Assembly (NCBI GenBank): GCA_027923505.1
Contig: BROI01000002.1
Span: 1,860,001-1,924,000 of the forward strand
Direction of reading: 5' to 3'
From: Mayamaea pseudoterrestris
Taxonomy: Eukaryota
DNA length: 64,000 nucleotides
In this document: piece by piece, positions 270 through 64,000 of the stretch
Layout of the letters: each line of letters starts with the position of its first letter
How positions within the stretch are numbered: the first letter of the stretch is position 1
The notes under the pieces: generated by a model
The model's input: only the letters and a program-made list of their open reading frames with translations
Databases searched by the model: none
What the model was told of the DNA's origin: nothing
Position numbers and translations under genes: made by a program

Positions 270-2285
270 TTAAAAGGCAGCATCAGCATCATCCTGACTC
301 ATCATGGTGGTCGCCGTGTCTCCAATGAGCTCTCGCGCCTTTTGATCGTCACCTCGCAATAGGCACTCCAGCGCCAAGACGTGACGCATGGTTGGCCGAC
401 CGTGTGGACAGTTCCATGGATGCTCGACATCCTGCAACCGCCTGACGATCCGGTCCATGTCCTTTTGCGAAAGCGCTTGACCTATCATGATACTTCCGCG
501 ACACGCACGACTTGCAAACATGGCAATCGCTTTTGGTAAGCGAACTATAACCTTTTCCGCTGGATCAATGCCTCTCGATCCACTAGTGTACCGGCGAACA
601 GCATTGTTGCCGTACAATCCATTTCCATCCGCTCCGGTTCCAGTTCCGGCTGCTCCATCGTGCGACGCTGACGACTCGTCGACGCCCAATATATGACAGA
701 GCGCGGATACATCCTCCTTTCCAAATTGAACAGCCTTGCGTCCGTCGGGTGCGCCACTGTGTGGAAGCGCCGTCAGTGACAATCGATGGCGCGGCTGCTT
801 GTCCCAATCCACCTTGAATCGAAACCCATTCTTCTCAAAAATCTCCATATTGTCCATAATGCATGACTCCTCGGCAGGCATAAGCTCCAGTGGCATTGGC
901 GAAATGAGGCGCTGCTCCGTAATGATCGTCTCGGCCATAAGCTTTTCGAAGTTGAACTTTTCATCGCATGCGTGCTGGTCCAAGATCCATAAATTGCAGT
1001 CCTGGCTCACGGCGAGTAGAAAGCCTAAATTGAATTGACCAATGACACGCATGGAGCTAAAATCTTCCTTTGAAAGACTGATAATGTCAGTCTGCACCTC
1101 TGGGTGATCAAGCGACACTGCCGTGTTCTCGTAGCGTAATCTACGATCACGTAATGCTAACCGTTCCCGACGCGACATCAAAACGGCGTCATCAGTCCCA
1201 GTAAACGCATCGAAAACAATTGATGAAGTCTCGCGCTGTGGATGATCTTGCGTCGGCAGTGCAGGTTGAGTGACATCATCGTCGTCATCGTCGCCATCTT
1301 CTTGTTCATCGTCATCGGCCGACGAGGGAGGGCTCCGGCAGCGATCCAGCGATACGCGACGTTGCTCTGCTTTCGCTTCATCCCCGCCATCGCCAGTTGT
1401 TACAGCCGTTCTATTTACAAGGTCAGACTGTGCCGTTGAATTCAAGGCAGACCTCCGCTGACGCTTGGAGTGTAAACCAGACATTGACGCATCGGAGTTA
1501 CGCTTTATTGTGAATTGTTCAACTTCTTCCAAAGACTGGACTGACACAGTCTGGGAGCTACTACGCATAGATGCGAATCCATAACGATCCAAGCCAGCCT
1601 GCGAACCTCCAAGTTCATGTGCGCCATTCCGATAACGATCAAACGAATTCGCCATCATACCAACACGCTCCACAGCCGTCTCACCTGATCTCTGCAGAAT
1701 TCCCGATCGCCTCGTCTCACTTGGAAGCATCCGTCTATGCAAACTTGATGGAGCTACAGAACCAATACGAATATCATCAAGCGCCTCGCCTCCCTTGTGG
1801 TCGTCAGCGTGTGGCGTAATATGAGCAATTCCAGTCAGACCACCACTGACAGCGTTGATTGCGGCTTCTTCAATTTCATCATCAAAAAACTCTTGCTCAT
1901 GAGCTGGTCGAAGAGCCAGCTTTGGAATGACCTCGTCGTCACTCGAGTCATCTGCATCGTCAGCCATTTCCGCCATGACCTCCTTCTTACGAGCTTCCTC
2001 TTGCTCTGGCGTGGACGTTGCTCGTCCATCATCGTATTGGTGCTGCAACCTCATTCGTCGCACGTCATTGACAAAGGCGTAACGGCGTGTGAAGCGACTT
2101 GGGCTTGATGTGTCGCCGAATACTTCCGCAACCTCGTCGTTCTCGTCATCGTCCGACTCGGTTTGCTCCGCCCCATCGTCATCGCCACGTCCACCATCAC
2201 TAGTCGTTGTAGCGCCACTCGAAGACCAGTGTATTGGTAGTAGCGGTCGCGATTGCTTCTTGATGCGTAAAGGCGTGTGGCATGG
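270..2285 (-). CDS. PMS2: PMS2/PMS1-type MutL-alpha endonuclease subunit, linker and C-terminal half only (5'-truncated)
   Basis: MutL_C motifs are present: IGQFNLGF, DQHACDEKFNFE (DQHA-x2-E-x4-E), FASRACR and WNCPHGRPTMRH. The frame stays open upstream of the listed ORF until a TAG at 2286-2288. No GHKL ATPase domain is seen anywhere in the window. Confidence 0.85.
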   Translation of the reverse strand, partial: PCHTPLRIKKQSRPLLPIHWSSSGATTTSDGGRGDDDGAEQTESDDDENDEVAEVFGDTSSPSRFTRRYAFVNDVRRMRLQHQYDDGRATSTPEQEEARKKEVMAEMADDADDSSDDEVIPKLALRPAHEQEFFDDEIEEAAINAVSGGLTGIAHITPHADDHKGGEALDDIRIGSVAPSSLHRRMLPSETRRSGILQRSGETAVERVGMMANSFDRYRNGAHELGGSQAGLDRYGFASMRSSSQTVSVQSLEEVEQFTIKRNSDASMSGLHSKRQRRSALNSTAQSDLVNRTAVTTGDGGDEAKAEQRRVSLDRCRSPPSSADDDEQEDGDDDDDDVTQPALPTQDHPQRETSSIVFDAFTGTDDAVLMSRRERLALRDRRLRYENTAVSLDHPEVQTDIISLSKEDFSSMRVIGQFNLGFLLAVSQDCNLWILDQHACDEKFNFEKLMAETIITEQRLISPMPLELMPAEESCIMDNMEIFEKNGFRFKVDWDKQPRHRLSLTALPHSGAPDGRKAVQFGKEDVSALCHILGVDESSASHDGAAGTGTGADGNGLYGNNAVRRYTSGSRGIDPAEKVIVRLPKAIAMFASRACRGSIMIGQALSQKDMDRIVRRLQDVEHPWNCPHGRPTMRHVLALECLLRGDDQKARELIGDTATTMMSQDDADAAF

Positions 2286-3789
2286 CTATGTGCTCGAGAA
2301 AGAATTCTTGTAGATCTGCAAACATCACTTTTCAGTCGATGCAGCTCGTACAGTGGAGGATTGATGAACAGGACGCTTTGCAAGACATGGAATGGCGGTA
2401 GATCACTCGAAGTTGGCTGTGGGTGGAATATTTGTTTGAAATTCTTGGAGCAAAGGTTGGATACAAGTGCTCGAACTTCTTTAGTTCGTCTGCTGTAAGA
2501 AAGTCTTTTGGGTAGTCTCCTCGCCATTGCGAAAGCTTGTTGCTACAGTTCTTCTACACTTTCTTCTTCTTTCAATTCAATTGGAGGACTTGTTGTTGGA
2601 GTTGAATCTTTATCAGCGCTGCAAGTTGTGACGTTGTCGGTCTGTCATGTCGCGTCGTTGGCGTTTGTGATTGTTGGCTCAAGATTGGTGGTTTCAGTTG
2701 TGTCGCTGCTCGTTGTGACGTTATTGGTGCTGCGCGTGGCGTCGTAGCCGTGGTAGGGATCGTTGAGATTGTTTGCTTGCTCTTCAATTGATGGAGTGCA
2801 CTTGTTGCTCTGATTTACTTGACTTGTCTTGTTCATGGAATGGTAGACCCTTCCTGTCTTGCTTGCCGATTTGCTCCAAGTGTTTCAATGTTTTGAATTA
2901 AAGTGCTGAAGTGTCTCCGTTCTTGCTCGGTTGAGTCTTGCTTGTTGAAGGTCGTCTTCAAAGTCGTTCTTCTTCATCACTTGTGCTTGGGTCGCCGCCA
3001 TATGGATGCCCAACTGCGTCCATTAAGATTTGACGATGGAAGATTTAGGTTTGGCTTTGGCGACTCACTTGTTGTTGACGACTTTGTTAAAGGCACCAGT
3101 TTGACGGCTTGCTTCTTGTTGGTGGAGCTTGACGTTGGTCTTGTGCGTTTCGTTCGAGTTGTTGATGGAGCTGGAGGCTGCTCGATTGATGAATCATCTT
3201 CCGATGAATAGTCTTTAATCTGATGTGGCTGTAGACCGCGCCAATTGGTTTGTGGATATAAAGGCAACGGTGTTGGAGCTGAGGATTGCAGGGAGTGCTG
3301 GATAAGTTCCGTCAACTAAGTCGGCATGTATGAAGGCCGAAATCGCTCCTGAGTTTGTAGAAGGATAACGGGGCTTGAAGACGTTGCATGAGGAACGATC
3401 GTCGCGAAGTCAACTGAAGGGCTTCGGTGTACTGCTGCAAGTCCTTGTTCGAGTAATGGCGCTTGACGAGGCACTTGTTCACGCATGATGGTTGCGGGTG
3501 AGGCTCTTGACGATGGTTTTGATGCTCAAGTTGACGCGAGTTTGCTCTTGATGATCTCGACACGATAATCATTGTCTCTTGGTTGGTCTCTTGGCGCTCG
3601 TTGTTGCGATTCTGGCGATAACGGCGGTCTTCTTGTTGATCATCTTGAGGAAGACGACGATCTTGATGCTCGATTTGAATTGCGGGCAGCTCTCTTGGTC
3701 ACGTTCTAAACCCCGCTCTTGTTGCTCGTGCTTCTTCATCTTCCAATTGACGACGGCTTCGTGACAGAGCGGGTGTTCCATCCCGAGAC

Positions 3790-4700
3790 GTGATGGGCGT
3801 TGGCTACCGTTCAAAGCAGTCGGCAGCGCGATGTCTGGTTGATGGCAAGGTAGCATTTGAATGATGGCGGTTCGCGTGTTGTTATAGTTGGTTTGTGGGC
3901 GTTCATTACGAGTTGGCGGCGCTTGATGCTGACGAGTGTTTTGTTGGCGTAAAAGTTTCTTGTTGCGGCGGTTCTGGTTGCGCTGCATATAGAACAATCT
4001 CGTTGACTCCCTTGTATTAAAGCTTCTTCATCTTCTGCTGCGTAAATCGTTTGGTAGATAGTCGACCTGGCGCCCTCCATTCGGTCTTGGTCAGGCGTTG
4101 CTTGGTCTTTGCTACTTTGCTCTGGCGAAGCAGTATTGAGGCGGCAGTTTGTACATGAGCGTAGCCATCAGGTCTTCTGCAAGAAGTGTTTGGTTGAACT
4201 TGATGGCTTGCGATTGCATGAGAGTCGATGAGGTCTTGAGAGTTTGCAGTTGGTCGTTCGAGCTTGAGATTTTGAATGCCCGTCGGTAAAGTGTTGGCGC
4301 CATGAACTTTGTCTGGAAAAACTTGATTTCCAATGCGTTGATAACCTTCCAAGCTTCGCCTCCTGGATACTCTGTTGATTCTGCTCCGACAAGATGGTCG
4401 TTCAACTCGGGGAATGGCGACAATGCGATGGAGAGCGTTTGCATGAGCGTTTATGCTTGCGTTCCGCTTGTTGGTTTCAAATGATTTGGATTTCGTCTGC
4501 TGTTGCGTTCGCTGCAGGATCAGTAATGACTTCATGTTGAGTAGCTGGTAAATGCTCGGGTCGACTGCCTCTTATAGGAGCGAAGCAGCCTGCAATTTTT
4601 TGCATGATTCTTGAACTGGTTGAACCATGATGGAAAGGCTTCGATGGTATTGGTTATCTTTGGCGTTTTTGTGGCGCATTCATAGTGATGTCTTCTTGTT
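3790..4700 (-). pseudogene. Copia-like gag remnant with CCHC zinc knuckle
   Basis: Fragments read EAFPSWFNQFKNHA, GEAWKVINALEIKF and LMYKLPPQY. At 3816-3855 the minus strand reads TGC TAC CTT [T]GC CAT CAA CCA G[G]A CAT CGC GCT GCC GAC TGC, giving CYLCHQPGHRAADC after restoring two single bases. Confidence 0.65.
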
Positions 4701-5386
4701 GGTCGGTCATGGAGCGATTAGAATGAGTAGTAAAAGTTTTGGCTATTGGTTGGACGTTGATAGCTAACGTTGTTGTCGGCGAATGAAGATTGACGGTTTG
4801 GGGTAGCTAAACGTTGCTGACGTGGCCAATTGAGTTGCTGATGTGACGGAGTTTGAAAACGTGAACGAGCGTGGAACTGCTGAGCGTGTTGATCGCGACG
4901 ATGGACACGTTGTTGATTTGTCACTTGTCGATTTCGTTGAGCTTGTAAGTGCAGCTGTCGTTGTTGTTGATTAAGAAGATGATTTAAACGAGTTACTTGA
5001 GCTTGAAGACTGTTTATATCGCGTGTATGATGAGTTGTAGTGTTGCGCGTGTCGTTGATGCGAGGCTGGACTCGAAGGATTGGATTGGAGGTTCGGTTTT
5101 GCTGTCGGGTTGGCGTGACGCTTCGATTCGCTTGTTGTTGTCTTAAACGCTGCTGGTAAGGACGATTGCTGTTCGTTTCGTTGCGTCTTTGACTAACAGT
5201 GATTCGATTGCGTTGAAGATTGATCGAAGCTTGTTGCGTTGTTGATGCGCGCTCTTGACTTGCTTGTCGCTGTCTGTTTCGTTGTTGAAGAAGTGCTTGA
5301 CGACGGTCTGCAACGCTTTGAACTGTTGCGATGCGAGGTGCTTCTTGGTAAGTGCTTGAAACGTTCTGAGAGCGAAGAGTTTGTTG

Positions 5387-6637
5387 CTATGGTCTCGTGT
5401 CTTGGCGATGCGCTTGTCTAACTGGCGCTTGATTTGCTTCTTGTTGGCGAATTGAATTGATTGATCGGCAAGTATGCGTCATGCTTGTTGGCGATGTCTC
5501 TAATTGCTCGTTGACTGGCGATGAGTTGCTGCTTGGCGAGGGTACGTGTGTTTGCGTATTGGCGATGCACACAGAACAAGCGCACGTCGTCTCTGTGTTT
5601 ATATCTGGTACTTCAGAAAGTCTTTGCAAGTCTTGACGTCTGATTTCTTCGTCCTTTTGAAGCAGGAAACGAGTCTTCTTGAGGAAGTAAAGAGTTACTG
5701 GATGCGATAGGTCTTTTGCTTCGAATTCGTCTCGCTCGTTGCGCAAAGTGTCTTCTAGTAGAAGAATCTCCTTCTCTTCGGGCGTGAAAGGATTGTTCGG
5801 TCGGCAAAGATCAAGGCTCTTGTAAAAGTCTGCTCGCTTTTCGTCAAGGAAGATTAATGACTTTGGAGAAAAGATGAAGGCTTTGAGAAAGGGTACGTTG
5901 CTGTCGATGTAACTTGTTTGTCGCCCTGAGTTTGCGGTTGACGCGGCAACTTTTGCTAATCCGTCTTCTTTGAATTCTTCCGCAATGTGACTGTAAAACA
6001 CTTCATTGTTGGCAAGGTCTTTAAACTGATTGAAGCGCTGCTCACAAACTTGTTCCGGGTCGATTGGCTTTGATGAAGGCGGCGGTAGAATGCCTCGAAA
6101 GATCCAGGCGAAACGCTTGTCTTCTTCGTCCCAAGTCCAAGGGGTTGGAGGAGAGACGCGCGGGTCGTAACGATACCAGCCGTATCGAACGTTCGGGTGG
6201 TTGTAAACTGCTTTCTCTTCGTCAGAGGCGGGTCGTCCAGTTAAATGCCAGTCTTCGGGGTTGTTTGGTGAAAGGCGACGAAGGCTGTCGCGTGTGTTGG
6301 ACTCGGTTGGAATGCGCTCTCGTTCTTGATTGCTTGCAATTTGATCGGCGGCGGTAAGTCGGATTACTGGGCGGCCTTCTGGAGCGACCGATTGGAGACT
6401 TGAAGGGTTGAACTCGTGTAAAGTAATGTTGGTGAAGAGGACGACGACTTGTAGAAGGCGTCGTGAAGAATTAAAGACTTGGCGGCTTGTGTTGAAGCGG
6501 CGAAGGAAACTGTAAAGAAGGCGCGTGACTGGTGGAGTGAGAGGCGACTTGGAAAGAGTGCTCGGCAGACTAGGTAAAGTAGTTCTGCTCAACTGATGGA
6601 GACTTGAAATCTGCTCGACGACGTTGGCCTTGATCAA
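5387..6637 (-). CDS. 416-aa ORF of unknown function inside the retroelement-like block (possible N-terminal extension of gag)
   Basis: Long stop-free frame just downstream of the putative LTR and on the same strand as the gag remnant. No recognisable domain. Confidence 0.4.
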   Translation of the reverse strand: MIKANVVEQISSLHQLSRTTLPSLPSTLSKSPLTPPVTRLLYSFLRRFNTSRQVFNSSRRLLQVVVLFTNITLHEFNPSSLQSVAPEGRPVIRLTAADQIASNQERERIPTESNTRDSLRRLSPNNPEDWHLTGRPASDEEKAVYNHPNVRYGWYRYDPRVSPPTPWTWDEEDKRFAWIFRGILPPPSSKPIDPEQVCEQRFNQFKDLANNEVFYSHIAEEFKEDGLAKVAASTANSGRQTSYIDSNVPFLKAFIFSPKSLIFLDEKRADFYKSLDLCRPNNPFTPEEKEILLLEDTLRNERDEFEAKDLSHPVTLYFLKKTRFLLQKDEEIRRQDLQRLSEVPDINTETTCACSVCIANTQTHVPSPSSNSSPVNEQLETSPTSMTHTCRSINSIRQQEANQAPVRQAHRQDTRP

Positions 6638-6934
6638 ACGCTTGATCCGACTCGAGGTAAACTAAAAGATAAAGGCAAAAGGGTCGCTTGTAGACTTGCT
6701 CTTGCTCACTCAATACTCCGCTTGTTGCTGCAGAGCTTTGGAAATTCGAGGTTGACAGAAAGGGCTTGAAGAAATCCGCGTCCGGTTTTGTTCAATGCTT
6801 TGGAAACTTGGTAAAAAGATCTTGGTTCAATCGGCAAGTAATTACTTTGCTTGAGATCCAAGATGAAGGTCCGTACGGAAGTAGGGAGAAAAGACGGTTT
6901 AAACGCTAAAAGACTGGGGAAACTTTGAATCTAT

Positions 6935-7385
6935 TGTTAGTAGATCCTCTAGAATGAGACGAAAGTGAAGCGGTCGATTTCGCATCCAAAAGTGGCTTCT
7001 CATTCATACGTATGTATATTGTCTACCGGTCGTGTCATTTTGTACTGGCCATCCCGTAGGCGGGATGGCTCTCGTCCGTCTACAGAATTGGCAGTATAGT
7101 CTTCACTGCTGGTAGTGTTTGCACGGCTTCGCTCTGTAGGGGCCAAACATTCGCTGTGTACGCCGGTTCCAGTATTCGATGTGCTTGTGGTAGTCTTTCT
7201 ACGGTTGTCAGTCGTGACTTCTTCGGGTACGGTGAAGTGTGTAGGGTTTGAGCCAGTGGCTGACTTTCTCGCCGTCGTTGGGGTGTGGTCGGGAACGGGA
7301 TCTTCCGTGTCTTGGTGCCGCTGAGACCGTGTCGATGTCCTTTTCAATGTTGCTTTGTTCGTCGGCCAAAACGGGGATCCCAGCA
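6935..7385 (-). repeat. Putative 5' LTR (~451 bp) of the gag-bearing element
   Basis: The minus strand begins TGCTGG exactly where satellite similarity stops (7385) and ends CTAACA. Its + strand edge (tgttagtagatcctctagaat) resembles the edge of the intact Copia LTR (tgttggatctagaat). No partner copy was found to confirm it. Confidence 0.4.
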
Positions 7386-10300
7386 TTGCCATCTACTGAG
7401 GGCCCAGCCAGGTAATGCATCTTGTAGCGCACCTGAATTAAGGATGTAAGCACCATTCTGGAATGATTAGGGCATACACATGGCTCTAGGTATGGGTGTT
7501 TGAAAGTCATGGCATCCTTTGGCTTAAACTGGTGACAAGTTGTCACCAATCCCATTGCAGTCTACCTAGGGACTAGTCAGGCAAAGCATCTTGTAGCGGA
7601 CTTACAATAAGGATGTTAGCACTATTCTGGCATGATTTGGGCATACATATTACTCTAGTATGGGTGTTTGAAAATCATGGAATCTGCTGGCTGAGACTGG
7701 TGACAAGTTGTCACCAAATACATTGCAGTCTCCAGGGGACCAGCCAGACAATGCATCTTGTAGAGCACTGGAAAAAAGGCTGCTGGCACCATCAGGCTAA
7801 ATTTGGTCACAGTATGGGCCTAATCATTGGCACCATTCTGGTGTAATTTGGGCACGTACAGGGCTTGCTGTAGGGGCATTTGAATGTCAAGGCATCTGCG
7901 GGCTGAGACTGGTGACAAGTTGTCACCAAATACATTGCAGTCCCCTGAGACACCAGCCAGGCATACCATCTTGTAGCGCATCCCATATAATGATGTTGGC
8001 ACCATTCTGGTGGCATTTGGGTGTATACATGGCCTGCTGCAGGGGTGTTTGAATGTCAAGGCATCTGCGGGCTGAGACTGGTGACCAGTTGTCACCAAAT
8101 ACATTGCCATCCACTGAGACACCAGCCAGGCATACCATCTTGTAGCGCAGCCTCAATAATGATGTTGGCGCCATTCTGGTGTCTTTTGGGTGTATACATG
8201 GCCTGCTGTAGGGGTGTTTGAATGTCAAGGCTGTCTGGCGGAGACTGGTGACAAGTTGTCAACAAATACATTGCAGTCCCCTGAGACACAAGCCAGGCAT
8301 ACCATCTTGTAGCGCAGCCTATATAATGATGTTGGCACCATTCTGGTGTCATTTGGGTGTATACATGGCCTGCTGTAGGGGCATTTGAATGTCAAGGCAT
8401 CTGCGGGCTGAGACTGGTGACAAGTTGTCACCAAATACATTGCAGTCCCCTGAGACACCAGCCAGGCATACCATCTTGTAGCACAGCCTAAATAATCATG
8501 TTGGCACCATTCTGGTGTCATTTGGGTGTATACATGGCCTGCTGTAGGGGCGTTTGAATGTCAAGGCATCTGCGGGCTGAGACTGGTGACAAGTTGTCAC
8601 CAAATACATTGCAGTCCCCTGAGACACCAGCCAGGCATACCATCTTGTAGCACAGCCTGAATAATGATGTTGGCACCATTCTGGTGTCATTTGGGTGTAT
8701 ACATGGCCTGCTGTAGGGGCATTTGAATGTCAAGGCATCTGCGGGCTGAGACTGGTGACAAGTTGTCACCAAATACATTGCAGTCCCCTGAGTCAAAAAA
8801 CAGGCATACCATCTTGTAGCGCGGCCTAAATAATGATGTTGGCACCATTCTGGTGTCATTTGGGTGTATACATGGCCTGCTGTAGGGGCATTTGAATGTC
8901 AAGGCATCTGCGGGCTGAGACTGGTGACAAGTTGTCACCAAATACATTGCCGTCCCCTGAGACACCAGCCAGGCATACCATCTTGTAGCGCAGCCTGAAT
9001 AATGATGTTGGCACCATTCTGGTGTCATTTGGGTGTATACATGGCCTGCTGTAGGGGCGTTTGAATGTCAAGGCATCTGCGGGCTGAGACTGGTGACAAG
9101 TTGTCACCAAATACATTGCAGTCCCCTGAGACACCAGCCAGGCATACCATCTTGTAGCGCAGCCTAAATAATGATGTTGGCGCCATTCTGGTGTCATTTG
9201 GGTGTATACATGGCCTGCTGTTGGGGTGTTTAAATGTCAAGGCATCTGCCGGCTGAGATTGGTGACAAGTTGTCACCAAATACATTGCAGTCCCCTGAGA
9301 CACCAGCCAGGCATACCATCTTGTAGCGCAGCCTGAATAATGATGTTGGCGCCATTCTGGTGTCATTTGGGTGTATACATGGCCTGCTGTAGGGGCATTT
9401 GAATGTCAAGGCATCTGCGGGCTGAGACTGGTGACAAGTTGTCACCAAATACATTGCAGTCCCCTGAGACACCAGCCAGGCATACCATCTTGTAGCGCAG
9501 CCTGAATAATGATGTTGGCACCATTCTGGTGTCATTTGGGTGTATACATGGCCTGCTGTAGGGGCGTTTGAATGTCAAGGCATCTGCGGGCTGAGACTGG
9601 TGACAAGTTGTCACCAAATACATTGCCGTCCCCTGAGACACCAGCCAGGCATACCATCTTGTAGCGCAGCCTGAATAATGATGTTGGCGCCATTCTGGTG
9701 TCATTTGGGTGTATACATGGCCTGCTGTAGGGGTGTTTGAATGTCATGGCATCTGCGGGCTGAGACTGGTGACAAGTTGTCACCAAATACATTGCAGTCC
9801 CCTGAGACACCAGCCAGGCATACCATCTTGTAGCGCAGCCTAAATAATGATGTTGGCGCCATTCTGGTGTCATTTGGGTGTATACATGGCCTGCTGCAGG
9901 GGCGTTTGAATGTCAAGGCATCTGCGGGATGAGACTGGTGACAAGTTGTCACCAAATACATTGCAGTCCCCTGAGACACCAGCCAGGCATACCATCTTGT
10001 AGCGCAGCCTAAATAATGATGTTGGCGCCATTCTGGTGTCATTTGGGTGTATACATGGCCTGCTGTAGGGGCGTTTGAATGTCAAGGCATCTGCGGGCTG
10101 AGACTGGTGACAAGTTGTCACCAAATACATTGCAGTCCCCTGAGACACCAGCCAGGCATACCATCTTGTAGCGCAGCCTAAATAATGATGTTGGCGCCAT
10201 TCTGGTGTCATTTGGGTGTATACATGGCCTGCTGTAGGGGCATTTGAATGTCAAGGCATCTGCGGGCTGAGATTGGTGACAAGTTGTCACCAAATACATT

Positions 10301-13300
10301 GCAGTCCCCTGAGACACCAGCCAGGCATACCATCTTGTAGCGCAGCCTGAATAATGATGTTGGCACCATTCTGGTGTCATTTGGGTGTATACATGGCCTG
10401 CTGTAGGGGCATTTGAATGTCAAGGCATCTGCGGGCTGAGACTGGTGACAAGTTGTCACCAAATACATTGCCGTCCCCTGAGACACCAGCCAGGCATACC
10501 ATCTTGTAGCGCAGCCTGAATAATGATGTTGGCACCATTCTGGTGTCATTTGGGTGTATACATGGCCTGCTGTAGGGGCGTTTGAATGTCAAGGCATCTG
10601 CGGGCTGAGACTGGTGACAAGTTGTCACCAAATACATTGCCGTCCCCTGAGACACCAGCCAGGCATACCATCTTGTAGCGCAGCCTAAATAATGATGTTG
10701 GCACCATTCTGGTGTCATTTGGGTGTATACATGGCCTGCTGTAGGGGCATTTGAATGTCAAGGCATCTGCGGGCTGAGACTGGTGACAAGTTGTCACCAA
10801 ATACATTGCCAACCCCTGAGACACCAGCCAGGCATACCATCTTGTAGCGCAGCCTAAATAATGATGTTGGCGCCATTCTGGTGTCATTTGGGTGTATACA
10901 TGGCCTGCTGTAGGGGCATTTGAATGTCAAGGCATCTGCGGGCTGAGACTGGTGACAAGTTGTCACCAAATACATTGCCGTCCCCTGAGACACCAGCCAG
11001 GCATACCATCTTGTAGCGCAGCCTAAATAATGATGTTGGCGCCATTCTGGTGTCATTTGGGTGTATACATGGCCTGCTGTAGGGGCGTTTGAATGTCAAG
11101 GCATCTGCGGGATGAGACTGGTGACAAGTTGTCACCAAATACATTGCCGTCCCCTGAGACACCAGCCAGGCATACCATCTTGTAGCGCAGCCTAAATAAT
11201 GATGTTGGCACCATTCTGGTGTCATTTGGGTGTATACATGGCCTGCTGTAGGGGCGTTTGAATGTCAAGGCATCTGCGGGCTGAGACTGGTGACAAGTTG
11301 TCACCAAATACATTGCAGTCCCCTGAGACACAAGCCAGGCATACCATCTTGTAGCGCAGCCTAAATAATGATGTTGGCGCCATTCTGGTGTCATTTGGGT
11401 GTATACATGGCCTGCTGTAGGGGCATTTGAATGTCAAGGCATCTGCGGGCTGAGACTGGTGACAAGTTGTCACCAAATACATTGCCATCCCCTGAGACAC
11501 CAGCCAGGCATACCATCTTGTAGCGCAGCCTGAATAATGATGTTGGCGCCATTCTGGTGTCATTTGGGTGTATACATGGCCTGCTGTAGGGGCGTTTGAA
11601 TGTCAAGGCATCTGCGGGCTGAGACTGGTGACAAGTTGTCACTAAATACATTGCCATCCCCTGAGACACCAGCCAGGCATACCATCTTGTAGCGCAGCCT
11701 AAATAATGATGTTGGCACCATTCTGGTGTCATTTGGGTGTATACATGGCCTGCTGTATGCGTGTTTGAATGCCAAGGCATCTGCGGGCTGAGACTGGTGA
11801 CAAGTTGTCACCAAATACATTGCTGTCCCCTGAGACACCAGCCAGGCATACCATCTTGTAGCGCAGCCTAAATAATGATGTTGGCGCCATTCTGGTGTCA
11901 TTTGGGTGTATACATGGCCTGCTGTAGGGGCATTTGAATGTCAAGGCATCTGCGGGCTGAGACTGGTGACAAGTTGTCACCAAATACATTGCAGTCCCCT
12001 GAGACACCAGCCAGGCATACCATCTTGTAGCGCAGCCTAAATAATGATGTTGGCGCCATTCTGGTGTCATTTGGGTGTATACATGGCCTGCTGTAGGGGC
12101 ATTTGAATGTCAAGGCATCTGCGGGCTGAGACTGGTGACAAGTTGTCACCAAATACATTGCAGTCCCCTGAGACACCAGCCAGGCATACCATCTTGTAGC
12201 GCAGCCTAAATAATGATGTTGGCGCCATTCTGGTGTCATTTGGGTGTATACATGGCCTGCTGTAGGGGCATTTGAATGTCAAGGCATCTGCGGGCTGAGA
12301 TTGGTGACAAGTTGTCACCAAATACATTGCAGTCCCCTGAGACACCAGCCAGGCATACCATCTTGTAGCGCAGCCTAAATAATGATGTTGGCACCATTCT
12401 GGTGTCATTTGGGTGTATACATGGCCTGCTGTAGGGGCATTTGAATGTCAAGGCATCTGCGGGCTGAGACTGGTGACAAGTTGTCACCAAATACATTGCA
12501 GTCCCCTGAGACACAAGCCAGGCATACCATCTTGTAGCGCAGCCTGAATAATGATGTTGGCGCCATTCTGGTGTCATTTGGGTGTATACATGGCCTGCTG
12601 TAGGGGCATTTGAATGTCAAGGCATCTGCGGGCTGAGACTGGTGACAAGTTGTCACCAAATACATTGCCGTCCCCTGAGACACCAGCCAGGCATACCATC
12701 TTGTAGCGCAGCCTAAATAATGATGTTGGCGCCATTCTGGTGTCATTTGGGTGTATACATGGCCTGCTGTAGGGGTGTTTGAATGTCAAGGCATCTGCGG
12801 GCTGAGACTGGTGACAAGTTGTCACCAAATACATTGCAGTCCCCTGAGACACCAGCCAGGCATACCATCTTGTAGCGCAGCCTAAATAATGATGTTGGCG
12901 CCATTCTGGTGTCATTTGGGTGTATACATGGCCTGCTGTAGGGGCATTTGAATGTCAAGGCATCTGCGGGCTGAGACTGGTGACAAGTTGTCACCAAATA
13001 CATTGCCGTCCCCTGAGACACCAGCCAGGCATACCATCTTGTAGCGCAGCCTAAATAATGATGTTGGCGCCATTCTGGTGTCATTTGGGTGTATACATGG
13101 CCTGCTGTAGGGGCGTTTGAATGTCAAGGCATCTGCGGGCTGAGACTGGTGACAAGTTGTCACCAAATACATTGCAGTCCCCTGAGACACCAGCCAGGCA
13201 TACCATCTTGTAGCGCAGCCTAAATAATGATGTTGGCGCCATTCTGGTGTCATTTGGGTGTATACATGGCCTGCTGTAGGGGCATTTGAATGTCAAGGCA

Positions 13301-16300
13301 TCTGCGGGCTGAGACTGGTGACAAGTTGTCACCAAATACATTGCCATCCCCTGAGACACCAGCCAGGCATACCATCTTGTAGCGCAGCCTAAATAATGAT
13401 GTTGGCGCCATTCTGGTGTCATTTGGGTGTATACATGGCCTGCTGTAGGGGCATTTGAATGTCAAGGCATCTGCGGGCTGAGACTGGTGACAAGTTGTCA
13501 CCAAATACATTGCAGTCCCCTGAGACACCAGCCAGGCATACCATCTTGTAGCGCAGCCTAAATAATGATGTTGGCGCCATTCTGGTGTCATTTGGGTGTA
13601 TACATGGCCTGCTGCAGGGGCGTTTGAATGTCAAGGCATCTGCGGGCTGAGACTGGTGACAAGTTGTCACCAAATACATTGCCATCCCCTGAGACACCAG
13701 CCAGGCATACCATCTTGTAGCGCAGCCTAAATAATGATGTTGGCGCCATTCTGGTGTCATTTGGGTGTATACATGGCCTGCTGCAGGGGCGTTTGAATGT
13801 CAAGGCATCTGCGGACTGAGACTGGTGACAAGTTGTCACCAAATACATTGCCGTCCCCTGAGACACCAGCCAGGCATACCATCTTGTAGCGCAGCCTGAA
13901 TAATGATGTTGGCGCCATTCTGGTGTCATTTGGGTGTATACATGGCCTGCTGTAGGGGTGTTTGAATGTCAAGGCATCTGCGGGCTGAGACTGGTGACAA
14001 GTTGTCACCAAATACATTGCAGTCCCCTGAGACACCAGCCAGGCATACCATCTTGTAGCGCAGCCTAAATAATGATGTTGGCGCCATTCTGGTGTCATTT
14101 GGGTGTATACATGGCCTGCTGTAGGGGCATTTGAATGTCAAGGCATCTGCGGGCTGAGACTGGTGACAAGTTGTCACCAAATACATTGCCGTCCCCTGAG
14201 ACACCAGCCAGGCATACCATCTTGTAGCGCAGCCTAAATAATGATGTTGGCACCATTCTGGTGTCATTTGGGTGTATACATGGCCTGCTGTAGGGGCATT
14301 TGAATGTCAAGGCATCTGCGGGCTGAGACTGGTGACAAGTTGTCACCAAATACATTGCCGTCCCCTGAGACACCAGCCAGGCATACCATCTTGTAGCGCA
14401 GCCTAAATAATGATGTTGGCGCCATTCTGGTGTCATTTGGGTGTATACATGGCCTGCTGAAGGGGCGTTTGAATGTCAAGGCATCTGCGGGCTGAGACTG
14501 GTGACAAGTTGTCACCAAATACATTGCAGTCCCCTGAGACACCAGCCAGGCATACCATCTTGTAGCGCAGCCTAAATAATGATGTTGGCGCCATTCTGGT
14601 GTCATTTGGGTGTATACATGGCCTGCTGTAGGGGCATTTGAATGTCAAGGCATCTGCGGGCTGAGACTGGTGACAAGTTGTCACCAAATACATTGCCGTC
14701 CCCTGAGACACCAGCCAGGCATACCATCTTGTAGCGCAGCCTAAATAATGATGTTGGCGCCATTCTGGTGTCATTTGGGTGTATACATGGCCTGCTGTAG
14801 GGGCGTTTGAATGTCAAGGCATCTGCGGGCTGAGACTGGTGACAAGTTGTCACCAAATACATTGCCGTCCCCTGAGACACCAGCCAGGCATACCATCTTG
14901 TAGCGCAGCCTAAAAAATGATGTTGGCGCCATTCCGGTGTCATTTGGGTGCATACATGGCCTGCTGTAGGGGCATTTGAATGTCAAGGCATCTGCGGGCT
15001 GAGACTGGTGACAAGTTGTCACCAAATACATTGCAGTCCCCTGAGACACCAGCCAGGCATACCATCTTGTAGCACAGCCTATATAATGATGTTGGCACCA
15101 TTCTGGTGTCATTTGGGTGTATACATGGCCTGCTGTAGGGGCGTTTGAATGTCAAGGCATCTGCGGGCTGAGACTGGTGACAAGTTGTCACCAAATACAT
15201 TGCCATCCCCTGAGACACCAGCCAGGCATACCATCTTGTAGCGCAGCCTAAATAATGATGTTGGCGCCATTCTGGTGTCATTTGGGTGTATACATGGCCT
15301 GCTGTAGGGGCCTTTGAATGTCAAGGCATCTGCGGGATGAGACTGGTGACAAGTTGTCACCAAATACATTGCAGTCCCCTGAGACACCAGCCAGGCATAC
15401 CATCTTGTAGCGCAGCCTAAATAATGAGGTTGGCACCATTCTGGTGTCATATGGGTGTATACATGGCCTGCTGTAGGGGCGTTTGAATGTCAAGGCATCT
15501 GCGGGATGAGACTGGTGACAAGTTGTCAACAAATACATTGCAGTCCCCTGAGACACAAGCCAGGCATACCAACTTGTAGCGCAGCCTATATACTGATGTT
15601 GGCACCATTCTGGTGTCATTTGGGTGTATACATGGCCTGCTGTAGGGGCATTTGAATGTCATGGCATCTGCGGGATGAGACTGGTGACAAGTTGTCACCA
15701 AATACATTGCCGTCCCCTGAGACACCAGCCAGGCATACCATCTTGTAGCGCAGCCTAAATAATGATGTTGGCGCCATTCTGGTGTCATTTGGGTGTATAC
15801 ATGGCCTGCTGTAGGGGCGTTTGAATGTCAAGGCATCTGCGGGCTGAGACTGGTGACAAGTTGTCACCAAATACATTGCCGTCCCCTGAGACACCAGCCA
15901 GGCATACCATCTTGTAGCGCAGCCTAAATAATGATGTTGGCACCATTCTGGTGTCATTTGGGTGTATACATGGCCTGCTGTAGGGGCATTTGAATGTCAA
16001 GGCATCTGCGGGCTGAGACTGGTGACAAGTTGTCACCAAATACATTGCCATCCCCTGAGACACCAGCCAGGCATACCATCTTGTAGCGCAGCCTCAATAA
16101 TGATGTTGGCACCATTCTGGTGTCATTTGGGTGTATACATGGCCTGCTGTAGGGGCATTTGAATGTCAAGGCATCTGCGGGATGAGACTGGTGACAAGTT
16201 GTCACCAAATACATTGGGATGCCATGTCCCAATCTGAGACACCAGCCAGGCATACCATCTTGTAGCGCAGCCTAAATAATGATGTTGGCGCCATTCTGGT

Positions 16301-19300
16301 GTCATTTGGGTGTATACATGGCCTGCTGTAGGGGCATTTGAATGTCAAGGCATCTGCGGGATGAGACTGGTGACAAGTTGTCACCAAATACATTGCCATC
16401 CCCTGAGACACCAGCCAGGCATACCATCTTGTAGCGCAGCCTAAATAATGATGTTGGCGCCATTCTGGTGTCATTTGGGTGTATACATGGCCTGCTGCAG
16501 GGGCGTTTGAATGTCAAGGCATCTGCGGGATGAGACTGGTGACAAGTTGTCACCAAATACATTGCCGTCCCCTGAGACACCAGCCAGGCATACCATCTTG
16601 TAGCGCAGCCTAAAAAATGATGTTGGCGCCATTCTGGTGTCATTTGGGTGTATACATGGCCTGCTGTAGGGGCATTTGAATGTCAACGCATCGGCGGGGT
16701 GAGACTGGTGACAAGTTGTCACCAAATACATTGCAGTCCCCTGAGACACCAGCCAGGCATACCATCTTGTAGCGCAGCCTAAAAAATGAGGTTGGCACCA
16801 TTCTGGTGTCATATGGGTGTATACATGGCCTGCTGTAGGGGCATTTGAATGTCAAGGCATCCGCGGGCTGAGACTGGTGACAAGTTGTCACCAAAAACAT
16901 TGCCATCACCTGAGACACCAGCCAAGCCTACCATCTTGTAGCGCAGCCTGAATAATGGTGTTGGCACCATTCTGGTGTGATTTGGGTGTATACATGGCTT
17001 GCTGTAGGGGCGTTTGAATGTCACGGCATCTGCGGGCTGAGACTGGTGACAAGTTGTCACCAAATACATTGCCATCCCCTGAGACACCAGCCAAGCCTAC
17101 CATCTTGTAGCGCAGCCTAAAAAAAGATGTTGGCACCATTCTGGTGTAATTTGGGTGTACTACAGGGCCTGCTGGTAGGGGCGTTTGAATGTCACGGCAT
17201 CTGCGGGCTGAGACTGGTGACAAGTTGTCACCAAATACATTGCCACCCCTGAGACACCAGCCAGGCATACCATCTTGTAGCGCAGCCTGAATAATGATGT
17301 TGGCACCATTCTGGGCATTTGGGTGTACCTACATGGCATGCTGTAGGGGCATTTGAATGTCACGGCATCTGCAGGCTGAGACTGGTGACAAGTTGTCACC
17401 AAATACATTGCCAACCCCTGAGACACCAGCCAAGCCTACCATCTTGTAGCGCATCCTAATGAATGATGTTGGCACCATTCTGGTGTATTTTGGGTACCTA
17501 CAGGGCTTGCTGTAGGGGTGTTTGAATGTCACGGCATCTGCGGGCTGAGACTGGTGACAAGTTGTCACCAAATACATTGCCAACCCCTGAGACACCAGCC
17601 AAGCCTACCATGATGTAGCACAGCCTAAAATGATGTTGGCACCATTCTGGTGTATTTTGGGCACCTACAGGGCTTGCTGTAGGGGCGTTTGAATGTCACG
17701 GCATCCGCGGGCTGAGACTGGTGACAAGTTGTCACCAAATACATTGCCATTCCCTAAGACACCAACCAAGCCTACCCTCTTGTAGCGCAGCCTAAATAAT
17801 GATGTTGGCACCATTCTGGTGTCATTTGGGTGTATACATGGCCTGCTGTAGGGGCATTTGAATGTCAAGGCATCTGCGGGCTGAGACTGGTGACAAGTTG
17901 TACCATACTTGCGTGACACAGTTGTCAATGGCCACCTAATGTTTTGCTGATCATTGGCATGGGGCATTGTAGTGGTTGTCCATAATTTGGGGTGTTGGCC
18001 ACACCCATTTGATGTGTAGGCCTCCAGGCAGACCGTTTTCACCATGTCAGCCATCCGTGTCAATGGCACACCCTGGACATGTTTTGCGACTCATTCTGGT
18101 GTCATGTTGGGTGTTCATGGCCATGCTGTAGGGGCATTTCAATGTCAAGGCATCTGCATGGTGAGATTTGGTGACAGGTTGGCCACACCATTTGTAGACC
18201 AGTCCATGCTGTAGGCCTCCAGGCAGTCCGTTTTGCACCATGTCAGACCATCCTCATGTCAATGGCACACCCTGGACATGTTTGGCATGACTCATTGGTA
18301 CATTGCCATCCCCTGAGACACCAGCCAGGCATACCATCTTGTAGCGCAGCCTAAATAATGATGTTGGCGCCATTCTGGTGTCATTTGGGTGTATCCATGG
18401 CCTGCTGTAGGGGCATTTGAATGTCAAGGCATCTGCGGGATGAGACTGGTGACAAGTTGTCACCAAATACATTGCAGTCCCCTGAGACACCAGCCAGGCA
18501 TACCATCTTGTAGCGCAGCCTAAATAATGATGTTGGCGCCATTCTGGTGTCATTTGGGTGTATACATGGCCTGCTGCAGGGGCGTTTGAATGTCAAGGCA
18601 TCTGCGGGATGAGACTGGTGACAAGTTGTCACCAAATACATTGCAGTCCCCTGAGACACAAGCCAGGCATACCATCTTGTAGCGCGGCCTAAATAATGAT
18701 GTTGGCACCATTCTGGTGTCATTTGGGTGTATACATGGCCTGCTGTAGGGGCATTTGAATGTCATGGCATCTGCGGGCTGAGATTGGTGACAAGTTGTCA
18801 CCAAATACATTGCAGTCCCCTGAGACACCAGCCAGGCATATCATCTTGTAGTGCGGCCTAAATAATGATGTTGGCACCATTCTGGTGTCATTTGGGTGTA
18901 TACATGGCCTGCTGTAGGGGTGTTTGAATGTCAAGGCATCTGCGGGATGAGACTGGTGACAAGGTGTCACCAAATACATTGCAGTCCCCTGAGACACAAG
19001 CCAGGCATACCATCTTGTAGCGCGGCCTGAATAATGATGTTGGCACCATTCTGGTGTCATTTGGGTGTATACATGGCCTGCTGTAGGGGCATTTGAATGT
19101 CATGGCATCTGCGGGCTGAGATTGGTGACAAGTTGTCACCAAATACATTGCAGTCCCCTGAGACACCAGCCAGGCATACCATCTTGTAGCGCAGCCTGAA
19201 TAATGAGGTTGGCACCATTCTGGTGTCATTTGGGTGTATACATGGCCTGCTGTAGGGGCATTTGAATGTCAAGGAATCTGCGGGCGGAGACTGGTGACAA

Positions 19301-20322
19301 GTTGTCACCAAATACATTGCCATCCCCTGAGACACCAGCCAGGCATACCATCTTGTAGCGCAGCCGGAATAATGATGTTGGCACCGTTCTGGTGTCATTG
19401 GGGTGTATACATGGCCTGCTGTAGGTGTGTTTAAATGTCAAGGCATCTGCGGGCTGAGACTGGTGACAAGTTGTCACCAGATACATTGCAGTCCCCTGAG
19501 TCAAAAGACAGGCGTACCATCTTGTATCGCAGCCTGAAAAATGATGTTGGCGCCATTCTGGTGTTATTTGGGTGTATACATGGCCTGCTGTAGGGGTGTT
19601 TGAATGTCAAGGCATCTGCAAGCTGAGACTGGTGACAAGTTGTCACCAAATACAATGCCATCCCCTGAGACACCAGCCAGGCTTACCATCTTGTAGCGCA
19701 GCCTATATTATGATGTTGGCATCATTCTGGTGTAAATTGGGCACCTACAGGGCTTGCTGTAGGGGCGTTTGAATGTCATGGCATCTGCGGGCTGAGACTG
19801 GTGACAAGTTGTCACCAAATACATGGCCATCCCCTGAAACTCCTGTCAGGCTTACAACCTTGTAGCGCAGCCTGAATAATGATGTTGGCACCATTCTGGT
19901 GTAATTTGGGCACCTACAGACGTGCTGTAGGAACATTTGAATGTCATGGCATCTGCGGGCTGTGACTGGTGACAAGTTGTCACCAAATACACTGCCATCA
20001 CCTGAGACACCAGCCAGGCATACCATCTTGTAGCACAGCCTGAATAATGATGTTGGCACCAGGTGGGCACCTACAGGGCTTGCTGTAGGGGTGTATGAAT
20101 GTCATGGCATCTTCGGGCTGAGACTGGTGAGAACTTCTCACCAGTCACATTGCCATCCCCTGAGACACCAGCCAAGCCTACCATCTTGTAGCGCAGCCTG
20201 AATAATGATGTTGGCACCATTCTGGTGTAATTTGGGCACCTACAGGGCTTGCTATAGGGGCATGTGAATGTCATGGCACCTGCGGGCTGAGACTGGTGAG
20301 AAGTTCTCACCAGTCACATTGC
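7386..20322. repeat. 169-bp tandem satellite array, roughly 75 monomers
   Basis: The monomer ccattctggtgtcatttgggtgtatacatggcctgctgtagggg...gagactggtgacaagttgtcaccaaatacattgc...taatgatgttggc repeats directly. ORF-track starts recur every 169 nt (8859, 9028, 9197, ...). Confidence 0.98.
17901..18300. repeat. Unrelated short repeat interrupting the satellite
   Basis: The segment tgtaggcctccaggcag...tgtcaatggcacaccctggacatgttt occurs at about 18015 and 18210, with a partial third copy near 17920, interleaved with satellite fragments. Confidence 0.7.
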
Positions 20323-21520
20323 AGAGCCAACTACTTGTTGGATCTGCCAGTGGTGCACCTCAAGTGGCAAGTCAGACTTGCAAAATGGCCTACGGACCCC
20401 ATCATACAACAGACATGGACTTTAACATTAAATGGGACTCATCGACTTGTCAATTTGGATGTGGAACCCACCACCATTTGATGGGACTCTGCACATTCAA
20501 CAAATGGTTGAATGTGCCAGCATTGCACCCTTTTTGGTGGCAGGGATCATCACTATTGCTAAACTGAGCCCTATGATTGCTTTCAATTCATGCTTGTTCT
20601 CATAATGGGCCAATCTTTGGTCAGTAGCACCTCAGTTTCCACCACCATATGTGCCATGGTGAGACTCGGCAGATCCAACAACTTGTTTGATCTGCCAGTG
20701 GTGCACCTCAAGTGGCAAGTCAGACTTGCAAAATGGCCTACGGACCCCACCATACAACAGACATGGACTTTATCATTAAATGGGACTAATCGACTTGTCA
20801 ATTTGGGTGTGGAACCCACCACCATGTGATGGGACTCCGTGCATTGAATGTGCAAACATTGCACCCTTTTTGGTGGCAGTACTCATCACCATTGCTGGCT
20901 GAGCCCTCTGATTGCTTTCAATTCATGCTTGTTCTCATGATGGGCCCAACAGTGATCAGTAGCACCTCAGTATCCACCACTATATGTGCCATGTTGCGAC
21001 TCAGCAGAGCCAACAACTTGTTGGATCTGTCAGCGATGCACCTCAAGTGGCAAGTCAAACTTGCAAAATAGCCTACGGACCCCAACATACAACAGACATG
21101 GAATTAACATTAAATGGGACTCATCGACTTGTCAATTTGGATGTGGAACCCGCCACCATGTGATGGGACTCTGCACACTCAACAACTGGTTGAATGTGCC
21201 AGCATTGCACCCTTTTTGGTGGTAGGGATTATCACCATTGCTGGCTGGGAGCATCACCATTGCTGGTTGAGCCCTCTGATTGCTTTCAATTCATGCTTGT
21301 TCTCATGATGAGCCAACGTTGGTTAGTGGCACCTCAGTATCCACCACCATATGTGCCATGGTGAGACTCAGCAGATCCAACACCTTTTTGGACCTGCAAG
21401 TGGCACACCTCAAGTGGCAAGTCAGTCTTCCAAAATAGCCTATAGAAATCATAAAACAACAGACATGGAATTTAACATTGAATTTGACTCATAGACTTGT
21501 CACTCTGGGTGTGGAACCAT
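20323..21520. repeat. Second tandem repeat, ~335-365-bp unit, about 3.5 copies
   Basis: cacctcaagtggcaagtca recurs near 20357, 20704, 21039 and 21406. Each unit carries two palindromes. Confidence 0.92.
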
Positions 21521-21965
21521 CACTATGCCCTAAGACTAAGAATGCTAGCACCATCTTGGCTTGATTTGGGCATACACATGGCTACAGGTATGGGCATTTG
21601 AAAATCATGGCATCTGTGGGCTGAGACTGGTGACAAGTTGTCACCAATTGCATCGCAGTCTACCAAGGGTACCGCCAGGCAATGCATCATGTAGCGCACC
21701 TGAAATAAGGATGATGGCACCGTTCTGGCTTGATTTGAGCATACACATGGCTACAGGGATGGGCACTTGAAAATTATGGCATCTGTGGGCTGAGAAGGGG
21801 GACAAGTTGTCACCAATTGCATCGCAGTCTACCGAGGGTACCTCCAGGCAATGCATCATGTAGCGCACCTGAAATAAGGATGTTAGCACCGTTCTGGCTT
21901 GATTTGGGCATACTCGTGGCTACAGGTATGGGATTTGAAAATTATGGCATCTGCTAGCTGAACCT
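21521..21965. repeat. About 2.6 divergent monomers of the 169-bp satellite family
   Basis: gagactggtgacaagttgtcacc is retained. Diagnostic variants (gcacctgaaataaggatg, gggcatacacatggct, gaaaatcatgg) are shared with monomers at 7386-7790. Confidence 0.9.
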
Positions 21966-22163
21966 ACCTGTAGTTAGCGAGAAAGCGTCAAAAGTGTGTG
22001 ACGTACTTTTTTTCGCTCGGTCACACCTCCATGACGATTTCGCTTGGCGATCGCGGTCGATGAGGAAAAGGTAGTCAACAATGTTTGTAATCAATTGTGA
22101 TCCAGGCTTGAACAAGACCGTTCCAATATAATCTACAGTTCGAAACTCCGATCGAAACGCACC

Positions 22164-22769
22164 ATGCCGACATACCGACGCCTCGCATTGGCTGTCGTCG
22201 CATCCGTTCTACTGCCTTACACTTGTAGCTTTTCCGTTCAGAACTTGCATGTCCATCAACAGCAATCTAGCATGACCCGATCAGGCTTTTTTCAGACTGT
22301 TGTAACTGCAGCTGCCTTGACAATCACAGCAACTCCATTGGTCGCCAATGCCGATGTCACGGCCAAGCTGGCATCGTCGACTGCCTTGCGCAAAGTCAAG
22401 AGCTGCCAAAACAAGCTTGCAACGCTTGAAACTGCAATATCGGAGACAGATTACTTGGCCGTTCGACAGTCGCTTCGTGAAGCTCCATGCAGTGACTTGC
22501 GCAAAAGCATGACCACTTTGGTCAAGGGTGCCGAGGATGGATCCAACGCGCAAGAGATTTCCGCCAAATACAAGACTTTTATATCAAGTCTAGAAACACT
22601 CGACGCCAAGGCTGGTTTGGGGTTGCGAGGACAGTCAATATCAGTGGAGGAAATGACCAAATACTATCAAGCAGTGTTGATCAATCTGCGCGAGTTTTTG
22701 GAGGCCGCGCAAGCAGCAGCCGAGGTTCCACTGCAGTACAATGATGATATTGCTACCGGCAGTCAATAG
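22164..22769 (+). CDS. Plastid/thylakoid-lumen protein, PsbQ-like
   Basis: Signal peptide ending CS-F, a lumen-targeting-like segment (TRSGFF...VANA) and a small helical mature domain. Confidence 0.6.
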   Translation: MPTYRRLALAVVASVLLPYTCSFSVQNLHVHQQQSSMTRSGFFQTVVTAAALTITATPLVANADVTAKLASSTALRKVKSCQNKLATLETAISETDYLAVRQSLREAPCSDLRKSMTTLVKGAEDGSNAQEISAKYKTFISSLETLDAKAGLGLRGQSISVEEMTKYYQAVLINLREFLEAAQAAAEVPLQYNDDIATGSQ

Positions 22770-58860: not shown

Positions 58861-59071
58861 TGTTGGATCTAGAATATATCTTGCGCGCCCTTGAAGCGAC
58901 ACTAATGATTAAGCAGAACAGAGTCAATAAAACCACTTTACTTATTTTCTCCAAGAAGTGATCGTCCTCGATCCACTCCTTCGGTTGCCGCTTACCGCGC
59001 TTACTTAAATGTGACCGTCTTCGTGACGTCACCGCTGCCGCTTCGGTTTGGGTTCTCATCCATGCTCAACA
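58861..59071 (-). repeat. 3' LTR (211 bp) of the Copia element
   Basis: TGTTG...CAACA termini, preceded on the minus strand by a purine-rich AAAGGAGTG tract (PPT-like). Matches 63872-64000. Confidence 0.95.
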
Positions 59072-63844: not shown

Positions 63845-63871
63845 GTCTTTTCACTCGCTTCTTGGAGAAAA

Positions 63872-64000
63872 TGTTGGATCTAGAATATATCTTGCGCGCC
63901 CTTGAAGCGACACTAATGATTAAGCAGAACAGAGTCAATAAAACCACTTTACTTATTTTCTCCAAGAAGTGATCGTCCTCGATCCACTCCTTCGGTTGCC
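63872..64000 (-). repeat. 5' LTR of the Copia element (partial)
   Basis: Base-for-base identical to 58861-58989. Confidence 0.95.

Follow-up and report, generated by a model that had tools for sequence, protein, structure and literature searches.

What kind of sequence is the block of 169-bp tandem repeats at positions 7385 to 21961 of the DNA stretch considered here, and does it mark a centromere? The stretch, referred to as the window, comprises 64,000 nucleotides of contig BROI01000002.1 of Mayamaea pseudoterrestris (G000:C2:1860001-1924000, on contig C2), and array coordinates are given in window positions. Pointing to the nucleosome-like length of the unit and to older monomer types lying symmetrically around a near-identical core, the initial annotation had proposed a satellite-based centromere or a heterochromatic knob in a diatom-like host. 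Our analysis favours the following answer: the block is one array of an abundant, dispersed satellite family and probably a small methylated island without a centromere role of its own. Since the family occupies about 100 sites in the genome and has the look of a silenced repeat, it is unlikely that the block serves as the single centromere of its chromosome.

Tandem Repeats Finder (TRF) delimits period-169 arrays at 7384-7768, 7827-17905, 18299-20324 and 21537-21953, and a period-335 array at 20321-21518. The 75 full-length 169-bp monomers of the block run head to tail over several kilobases, with a GC content of 50% and no open frame of 150 codons or more in the array, as is found in dispersed satellite DNA. 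The near-identical core that had been claimed was confirmed: 47 core monomers (8270-16212) show a mean identity of 98.3% to their own consensus, and 37 of them are distinct. No higher-order period was found in the core, where the distance between monomers stays flat (0.022-0.027 for lags 1-15), indicating that there is no higher-order repeat of the alpha-satellite type. A structured RNA was rejected as the identity of the monomer (fold z -1.28, no match in an Rfam search).

The genome-wide distribution of the family carries most of the argument. A 19-bp dyad word of the monomer has 7,799 exact matches in the assembly (30.6 Mb, 41 contigs), as against none for the reversed control, and from this count the family makes up at least 1.32 Mb, or at least 4.3%, of the assembly. 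With a gap of 25 kb the positions listed form 83 site clusters on 35 contigs; a further listing of C1-C7 and part of C8, made from the first 100 of 517 matches listed, adds 20 sites and contig C5. The resulting total of about 100 sites on 36 of the 41 contigs is a lower bound, in which three neighbours would merge under the 25-kb rule and some sites are short relics. Seven sites are known on C2, with approximately 2.9, 1.0, 13.0 (the window array), 4.3, 13.4, 0.3 and 13.2 kb of 169-bp DNA, and 11 are listed on C1. Larger arrays of the window's core type exist elsewhere, exceeding 25 kb on C1 and reaching 22 kb on C8. Many arrays per chromosome thus lie among genes, in the manner of a dispersed satellite, and no single array dominates on C2, with the reservation that contigs are chromosome pieces and misjoins are possible. 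A distribution unrelated to one array per chromosome is the very outcome that the initial annotation had named as speaking against its one-per-chromosome satellite centromere. That the contigs are pieces of chromosomes follows from the 40 contig ends read, one of which carries a TTAGGG telomere (start of C11) and 10 of which lie in satellites. In sequencing runs containing the monomer, the best-covered environmental ones are soil, rhizosphere and leaf-litter metagenomes (shares 0.36-0.50, four runs), and no RNA run was seen among those listed.

What, then, do the layers record? Clustering of 1,197 monomers from 34 stretches gave subfamily A (656 monomers, the window core), subfamily B (192, the type that had been called intermediate) and an old type (153, found at the edges), besides minor subfamilies in the genome. 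Each of the three makes whole arrays elsewhere, the old type at C24:436 kb and C1:1304 kb, and B at C13:905 kb and other places; arrays on different contigs thus have subfamilies in common, again as in a dispersed satellite. The consensus sequences of A and B are 6.6% apart, and the old consensus differs from them by 20.1% and 19.6%, respectively. Being equidistant from the old type and similar in inner diversity, A and B represent, together with it, two age classes and not three, so that B cannot be called intermediate. From where the B relics lie, A seems to have expanded within an array of B type.

All blocks of the window array are read on the + strand. It begins with two full and one partial old-type monomers and a short degenerate stretch (7385..7826, from TRF and motif positions), a segment whose counterpart at the start of C22 differs by 1-2%, and continues with a single partial monomer carrying subfamily-B bases (7827..7933), in which the match to the C22 copy stops at about 7891. 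Next come the A core of about 53 monomers of 169 bp, each with the 19-bp dyad at monomer positions 146-164 (7934..16898), and a block of B-type and A/B mosaic monomers (16899..17905, the B type at approximately 16.9-17.7 kb). A 395-bp mosaic of 181/352-bp satellite and part of a 169-bp monomer follows (17906..18300); arrays of the 181/352-bp family also occur on C8, C13, C23 and C30 and at the ends of several contigs. To its right lie a second A block of eight monomers, the divergence of which rises rightward (18302..19653), four diverged B-type monomers (19654..20320, about 19.65-20.3 kb), and 1.2 kb with 3.4 copies of a 335-348-bp satellite (20321..21518, from TRF; 282 matches on many contigs), the similarity of which to the 169-bp unit is not above that of shuffles. 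One full and two partial old-type monomers (21534..21961) close the array at a natural end. The divergent monomers at 7385-7760 and 21534-21962 show 41-46 differences from the core consensus per full monomer. The quoted variant motifs thus occur where they had been placed, and one old subfamily is indeed stranded at both ends. The symmetry holds for these ends and not for what lies between: the left B layer is one partial monomer and the right side has two B blocks, and the second A block, the mosaic and the unrelated satellite exist on the right only.

Between the old monomers of the left edge and those of the right edge the distance is 21-27%, and both have closer relatives (12-17%) in other arrays. 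The old class forms one side of a branch in a 90-row tree (Shimodaira-Hasegawa-like approximate likelihood ratio test, 95), so that membership in the same old subfamily stands; a clade made up exclusively of the two window edges is absent from free trees and is not rejected either (approximately unbiased test, p 0.72 and 0.445). Derived bases common to both edges do not exceed those of random old pairs, 24-36% of 4,069 pairs sharing as many; in this comparison, 148 of the 153 old monomers were kept, stray divergent monomers of five stretches were left out, and the monomer at 21821 includes about 27 flank bases that inflate its differences. Old monomers also end many other arrays, and satellites in general are homogenised less strongly towards the ends of their arrays (PMC10048060). 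Layering is therefore not diagnostic of a centromere, and neither it nor the nucleosome-like unit length is evidence of one in the present genome. Array edges have also been copied as such: a nearly identical edge (0-1% per monomer) at C1:2186-2193 kb and C34:176-183 kb is a recent duplication or a retained haplotype, and C1:670 kb and C13:539 kb have an older duplicated edge in common, with an inversion.

The base composition points to silenced chromatin. The ratio of observed to expected CpG is 0.31 in the core and 0.10-0.36 in all 18 satellite consensus sequences, compared to 1.10 in genes and 1.20 in a piece of a Copia element beside the array, and variation in CpG columns is about five times that in the remaining columns (minor-allele frequency 0.121 versus 0.023). 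From this depletion we infer that the arrays are probably methylated chromatin, and a heterochromatic block, such as the knob of the initial annotation, fits it. In Phaeodactylum, DNA methylation is removed by the loss of DNMT5a (PMC9998398). The rare-variant spectrum, with alleles of 3% or more excluded, shows no excess of C-to-T changes at CpG over other C (4.8 versus 4.7 per site). Ten-base periodicity, measured on one monomer, gave p=0.024 for AA/TT/TA and 0.21 for GC/CC/GG. Among the literature titles listed, none dealt with the nucleosome repeat length of diatoms. Of 918 dyad sites, 834 match exactly. In young monomers no other 19-bp window is conserved as well as the dyad; in old ones its conservation is average. 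It lies within a 28-bp run common to the A and old consensus sequences (P=0.018). In the last two of the four diverged B-type monomers of the window, both arms have changed and still pair, and several strand inversions at array edges start at or near the dyad. The dyad may serve as a protein-binding site or form a hairpin that undergoes self-repair.

These observations could be brought together as follows. Arrays would have been seeded while the old type was current. Newer variants would then have passed from one non-allelic array to another, through unequal exchange, gene conversion or the re-insertion of circles, and expanded internally, and homogenisation would have failed at the array ends, leaving old monomers stranded there; in the window, A would have expanded within a B array. 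CG methylation, which would be due to DNMT5 as in the model diatom, may silence the arrays, and the near-nucleosome length of the unit may favour their packing. LTR (long terminal repeat) elements would accumulate, and together with the arrays they would seed rearrangements. The 79 block ends are scattered over all monomer positions, and the unmasked segments of 15 stretches gave no common carrier flank: only LTRs, other satellites and duplicated edges recur.

Several points weigh against this interpretation. The Copia piece beside the array has no CpG depletion, and the conservation of the dyad could mean that a protein binds it or that a hairpin repairs itself. Not all arrays have old edges, and some of the loci were chosen with an old-type query. 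In size and in mean spacing (about 300 kb), the arrays are comparable to those of repeat-based holocentromeres. Finally, no rival centromere was found at 15 AT-run sites on C1-C6, with a probe sensitivity of 14-19%. The sites came from 20-base A/T runs, among the first 100 of 368 matches listed, and the sensitivity refers to low-GC islands of the Phaeodactylum type, defined as at least ten 100-bp windows at 32% GC or less in 3 kb (threshold from 10.1101/096016). None of the 15 sites reached this level, the best having three such windows.

The absence of a low-GC island at these sites would also suit a repeat-based holocentromere or polycentromere, in which the 169-bp arrays would be dispersed CENH3 units like Tyba in Rhynchospora, and the window array one such unit. 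So would the unit length, the arrays from a few to more than 25 kb in size, the 40 hand-listed sites in the 12.2 Mb of C1-C7 (mean spacing 306 kb), the conserved dyad and the presence of one CENH3 candidate gene. This gene, the single candidate among 20 histone-fold matches, encodes a divergent H3 at G000:C2:130344-130610. In its product, one loop is longer by a residue and W replaces F84, both of which we take to be marks of CENH3; a PDB search did not discriminate CENH3 from H3. Spacing speaks the other way: it is not more regular than random (coefficient of variation 0.79 versus 0.94, P=0.13), and the longest site-free stretch, 1.71 Mb on C2, is longer than expected (P=0.027). C5 has one detected site in 1.24 Mb, with 1.11 Mb devoid of a detected site; these figures come from an incomplete detection, the spacing listing having caught five of the seven known C2 sites. 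In addition, at least seven unrelated families share the islands, Phaeodactylum centromeres are small, monocentric and low in GC (10.1101/096016), and among the titles listed in a literature search none is on a holocentric diatom. We therefore regard the holocentromere as improbable. The same holds for its more specific form, in which the approximately 100 dispersed arrays, perhaps helped by other nucleosome-sized families, would load CENH3 with the dyad as the seeding site. If it were true, a Tyba-like organisation would exist in a stramenopile and would have replaced the short, AT-rich centromeres of model diatoms.

A regional monocentromere is equally improbable. On this reading, the chromosome would have its sole active centromere in the window array, and the remaining arrays would be spill-over, comparable to alpha satellite outside centromeres. 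Its core is indeed the youngest-looking and most homogeneous among the seven C2 sites, the other two 13-kb arrays being of B type; older layers lie on both sides of it in a partly symmetric order that resembles alpha satellite (PMC2729386), and LTR elements insert in such arrays. Against this, the window array accounts for about 1% of the family (75 monomers out of at least 7,799), the A arrays on C1 and C8 include larger ones, and other satellites form a 31-kb island that is 20 kb from the start of the window on its left. A gene follows closely on the right: a PsbQ-like open frame on the + strand (22101..22769), the first on that side, starts less than 250 bp from the array end, and no 100-bp window of the array has a GC content of 32% or less, so that it is also no low-GC centromere of the Phaeodactylum type.

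It is very unlikely that the layering or the left flank is a product of the assembly, be it a collapsed array or haplotypes joined through repeats. On the left, the array borders on the 5' half of a Ty1/Copia-type LTR retrotransposon on the - strand (2217..7385, truncated at 2217; LTR at 6848-7385, TG...CA; 28 genome matches). The left edge of the array is therefore not a natural end but the point where this LTR stops, the element having inserted into an old monomer. The part of the window to the left of 2217 has a 92-93% match on C17, so that the truncated element joins a C17-like block to a block shared with C22. Together with the contig ends, 10 of 40 being in satellites and a single one having a telomere, and the near-identical array edge on C34 and C1, this junction is what an assembly artefact could produce. 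A MutL_C/PMS2-like frame at 270-2217, without its 5' part, is joined to the interior of the truncated element, and its C17 copy (L153:5176-8518), 92.8% alike, is whole, with 1,035 codons. The whole frame on C17 marks the left flank as a rearrangement, a diverged haplotype join or a misjoin.

The junctions of the array itself argue against an artefact. On the right, one contig of run X1 and one of run X2 span the passage to unique DNA; X1 is possibly the source of the assembly, and X2 carries the same variants. In runs X4 and X7 the unique right flank was not covered. On the left, the LTR-monomer junction recurs on C22, where a complete 10.8-kb copy of the element (G000:C22:4214-15055) has two LTRs, an RVT_2 domain (Pfam, in one of four frames) and a 5-bp target duplication within an old-type monomer, which continues for 64 bases past the element. 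That 37 of the 47 core monomers are distinct also speaks against an artefact. Window and C22 are 1-2% apart up to about 7891; beyond this point, 31 and 14 differences are counted in the following two 169-bp bins, and interior monomers are no longer positional counterparts. With an edge so similar and an interior so different, either the cores turned over beside a static edge, or two arrays recombined there.

Least probable is a mobile carrier (Helitron-like, miniature inverted-repeat transposable element or foldback) that would have placed the arrays with old monomers as its fixed ends: every unit has a hairpin-forming dyad, inverted blocks with a strand switch at or near the dyad occur at several array edges, and carriers are known for Tyba (10.64898/2026.01.17.700053) and oyster satellites (PMC10048060), but the scatter of the block ends, which shows no fixed termini, largely refutes it, no flank is common to the unmasked segments of 15 stretches save the C22 duplicate and LTR copies, and the direct repeats flanking one array are the LTRs of two separate retroelements.

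The satellite islands hold more than the 169-bp family. At least six other satellites share them, with units of 162, 171/172, 176, 181/352, 335-356 and 354 bp. A single superfamily was considered and rejected: among 36 satellite pairs compared, similarity was confined to known relatives, plus a weak hint between the 169-bp and 181-bp units. This in-register similarity of the two consensus sequences (z 2.6, 0 of 60 shuffles, one of the 36 pairs) may reflect a remote common origin. The 31-kb island before the window (G000:C2:1808.6-1839.5 kb) consists of 172-bp arrays that flank a 162-bp core, a nested layout like that of the window array built from unrelated families. A 174-bp satellite has 34 copies in the region G000:C2:2664.6-2672.4 kb. 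The 181/352-bp satellite abuts the sole telomere seen, fills seven of the 40 contig ends read (including those of C4, C9, C10, C17, C18 and C20) and may be partly subtelomeric; an 11-bp repeat array stands at the start of C18. On C1 (2.719 Mb), two 169-bp arrays in inverted orientation are connected by an 8-bp repeat in about 115 copies (L028:6751-7685), with short monomer homology at both junctions. The possibility that this repeat is an unusual telomere was discarded, as it occurs at none of the 40 contig ends.

Retroelements are frequent neighbours of the satellites. Among nine loci of the Copia element with their ends read, five abut satellites, and the two with intact ends outside C22 are in unique DNA. 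Another Copia-type element with RVT_2 lies at 59570-64000 of the window, and a 129-bp exact repeat at 58861-58989 and 63872-64000 probably represents its LTRs. A second LTR family, with a 329-bp LTR (L027:3346-3674 and 7340-7668, also in L158, L160, L087, L042 and L049), has its outer end in or at a 169-bp array in five of seven copies, the DNA examined having been chosen for satellites. The frame adjoining this LTR is presumably chromodomain-like. Right of the array, at 23260-23800, runs X1 and X2 show two alleles up to about 5% apart, as in a heterozygous diploid. The diatom-like host was borne out by 10 silicon-transporter matches, nine of them over the Pfam cut-off; at G000:C1:2.971-2.975 Mb, three silicon-transporter units share one open frame of 1,445 codons.

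Among known systems, the closest match is Cast1-Cast9 of Tribolium castaneum: several unrelated families that make up about 4% of the genome and lie among genes, with arrays that can exceed 10 kb and have degenerate edges. The non-centromeric euchromatic satellites of Tribolium are dominated by units of about 170 and 340 bp (PMC4675708), and the Cast families exchange between chromosomes, apart from the centromeric satellite (PMC4675708; 10.1101/2023.04.24.538079). For the diatom, by contrast, no separate centromeric satellite is known, its 169-bp family alone accounts for at least 4.3% of 30.6 Mb, and all its satellite families are strongly CpG-depleted. The Tyba unit measures 172 bp and forms arrays of some 20 kb across euchromatin with CENH3 (10.64898/2026.01.17.700053). 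Tyba resembles the diatom family in unit length (about 170 bp), in the size of the arrays that lie between genes (about 10-25 kb), in more homogeneous array centres and in invasion by LTR elements. It differs in being regularly spaced, CENH3-bound and partly carried by Helitrons, whereas the diatom arrays have random-looking spacing with megabase gaps, many mixed families and no carrier found. Primate alpha-satellite centromeres are of megabase scale. They have in common with the window array partly symmetric older layers around a homogeneous core, in a succession shared by chromosomes through waves of transfer and amplification (PMC2729386). In contrast to alpha satellite, the diatom array lacks a higher-order repeat, shares its contig with many others, shows no more than two clear age classes and is on a scale of 13 kb.

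The contrast with other diatoms is of another kind. Phaeodactylum tricornutum (10.1101/096016) and Fistulifera solaris, in which the predicted centromeres are described as low in GC and without highly repeated elements (10.1101/2021.11.10.468027), are likewise diatom hosts with a CENH3 candidate gene. Their centromeres are short, low in GC and about one per chromosome, whereas the window array has a GC content of 50% and is tandem. Among the literature titles listed on diatom satellite DNA or centromeres, mostly open literature that does not cover the assembly's own publication, no such family is described. Most likely, the window array is an additional example of a dispersed, probably methylated satellite, the layers of which record turnover across the whole family. 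The single array matters little in this respect, and the genome-wide picture matters more: in a gene-dense diatom genome of 30.6 Mb, a single satellite with a nucleosome-sized unit takes up at least 1.3 Mb and is accompanied by at least six further families, in contrast to the short, low-GC and repeat-poor centromeres mapped or predicted in diatoms.

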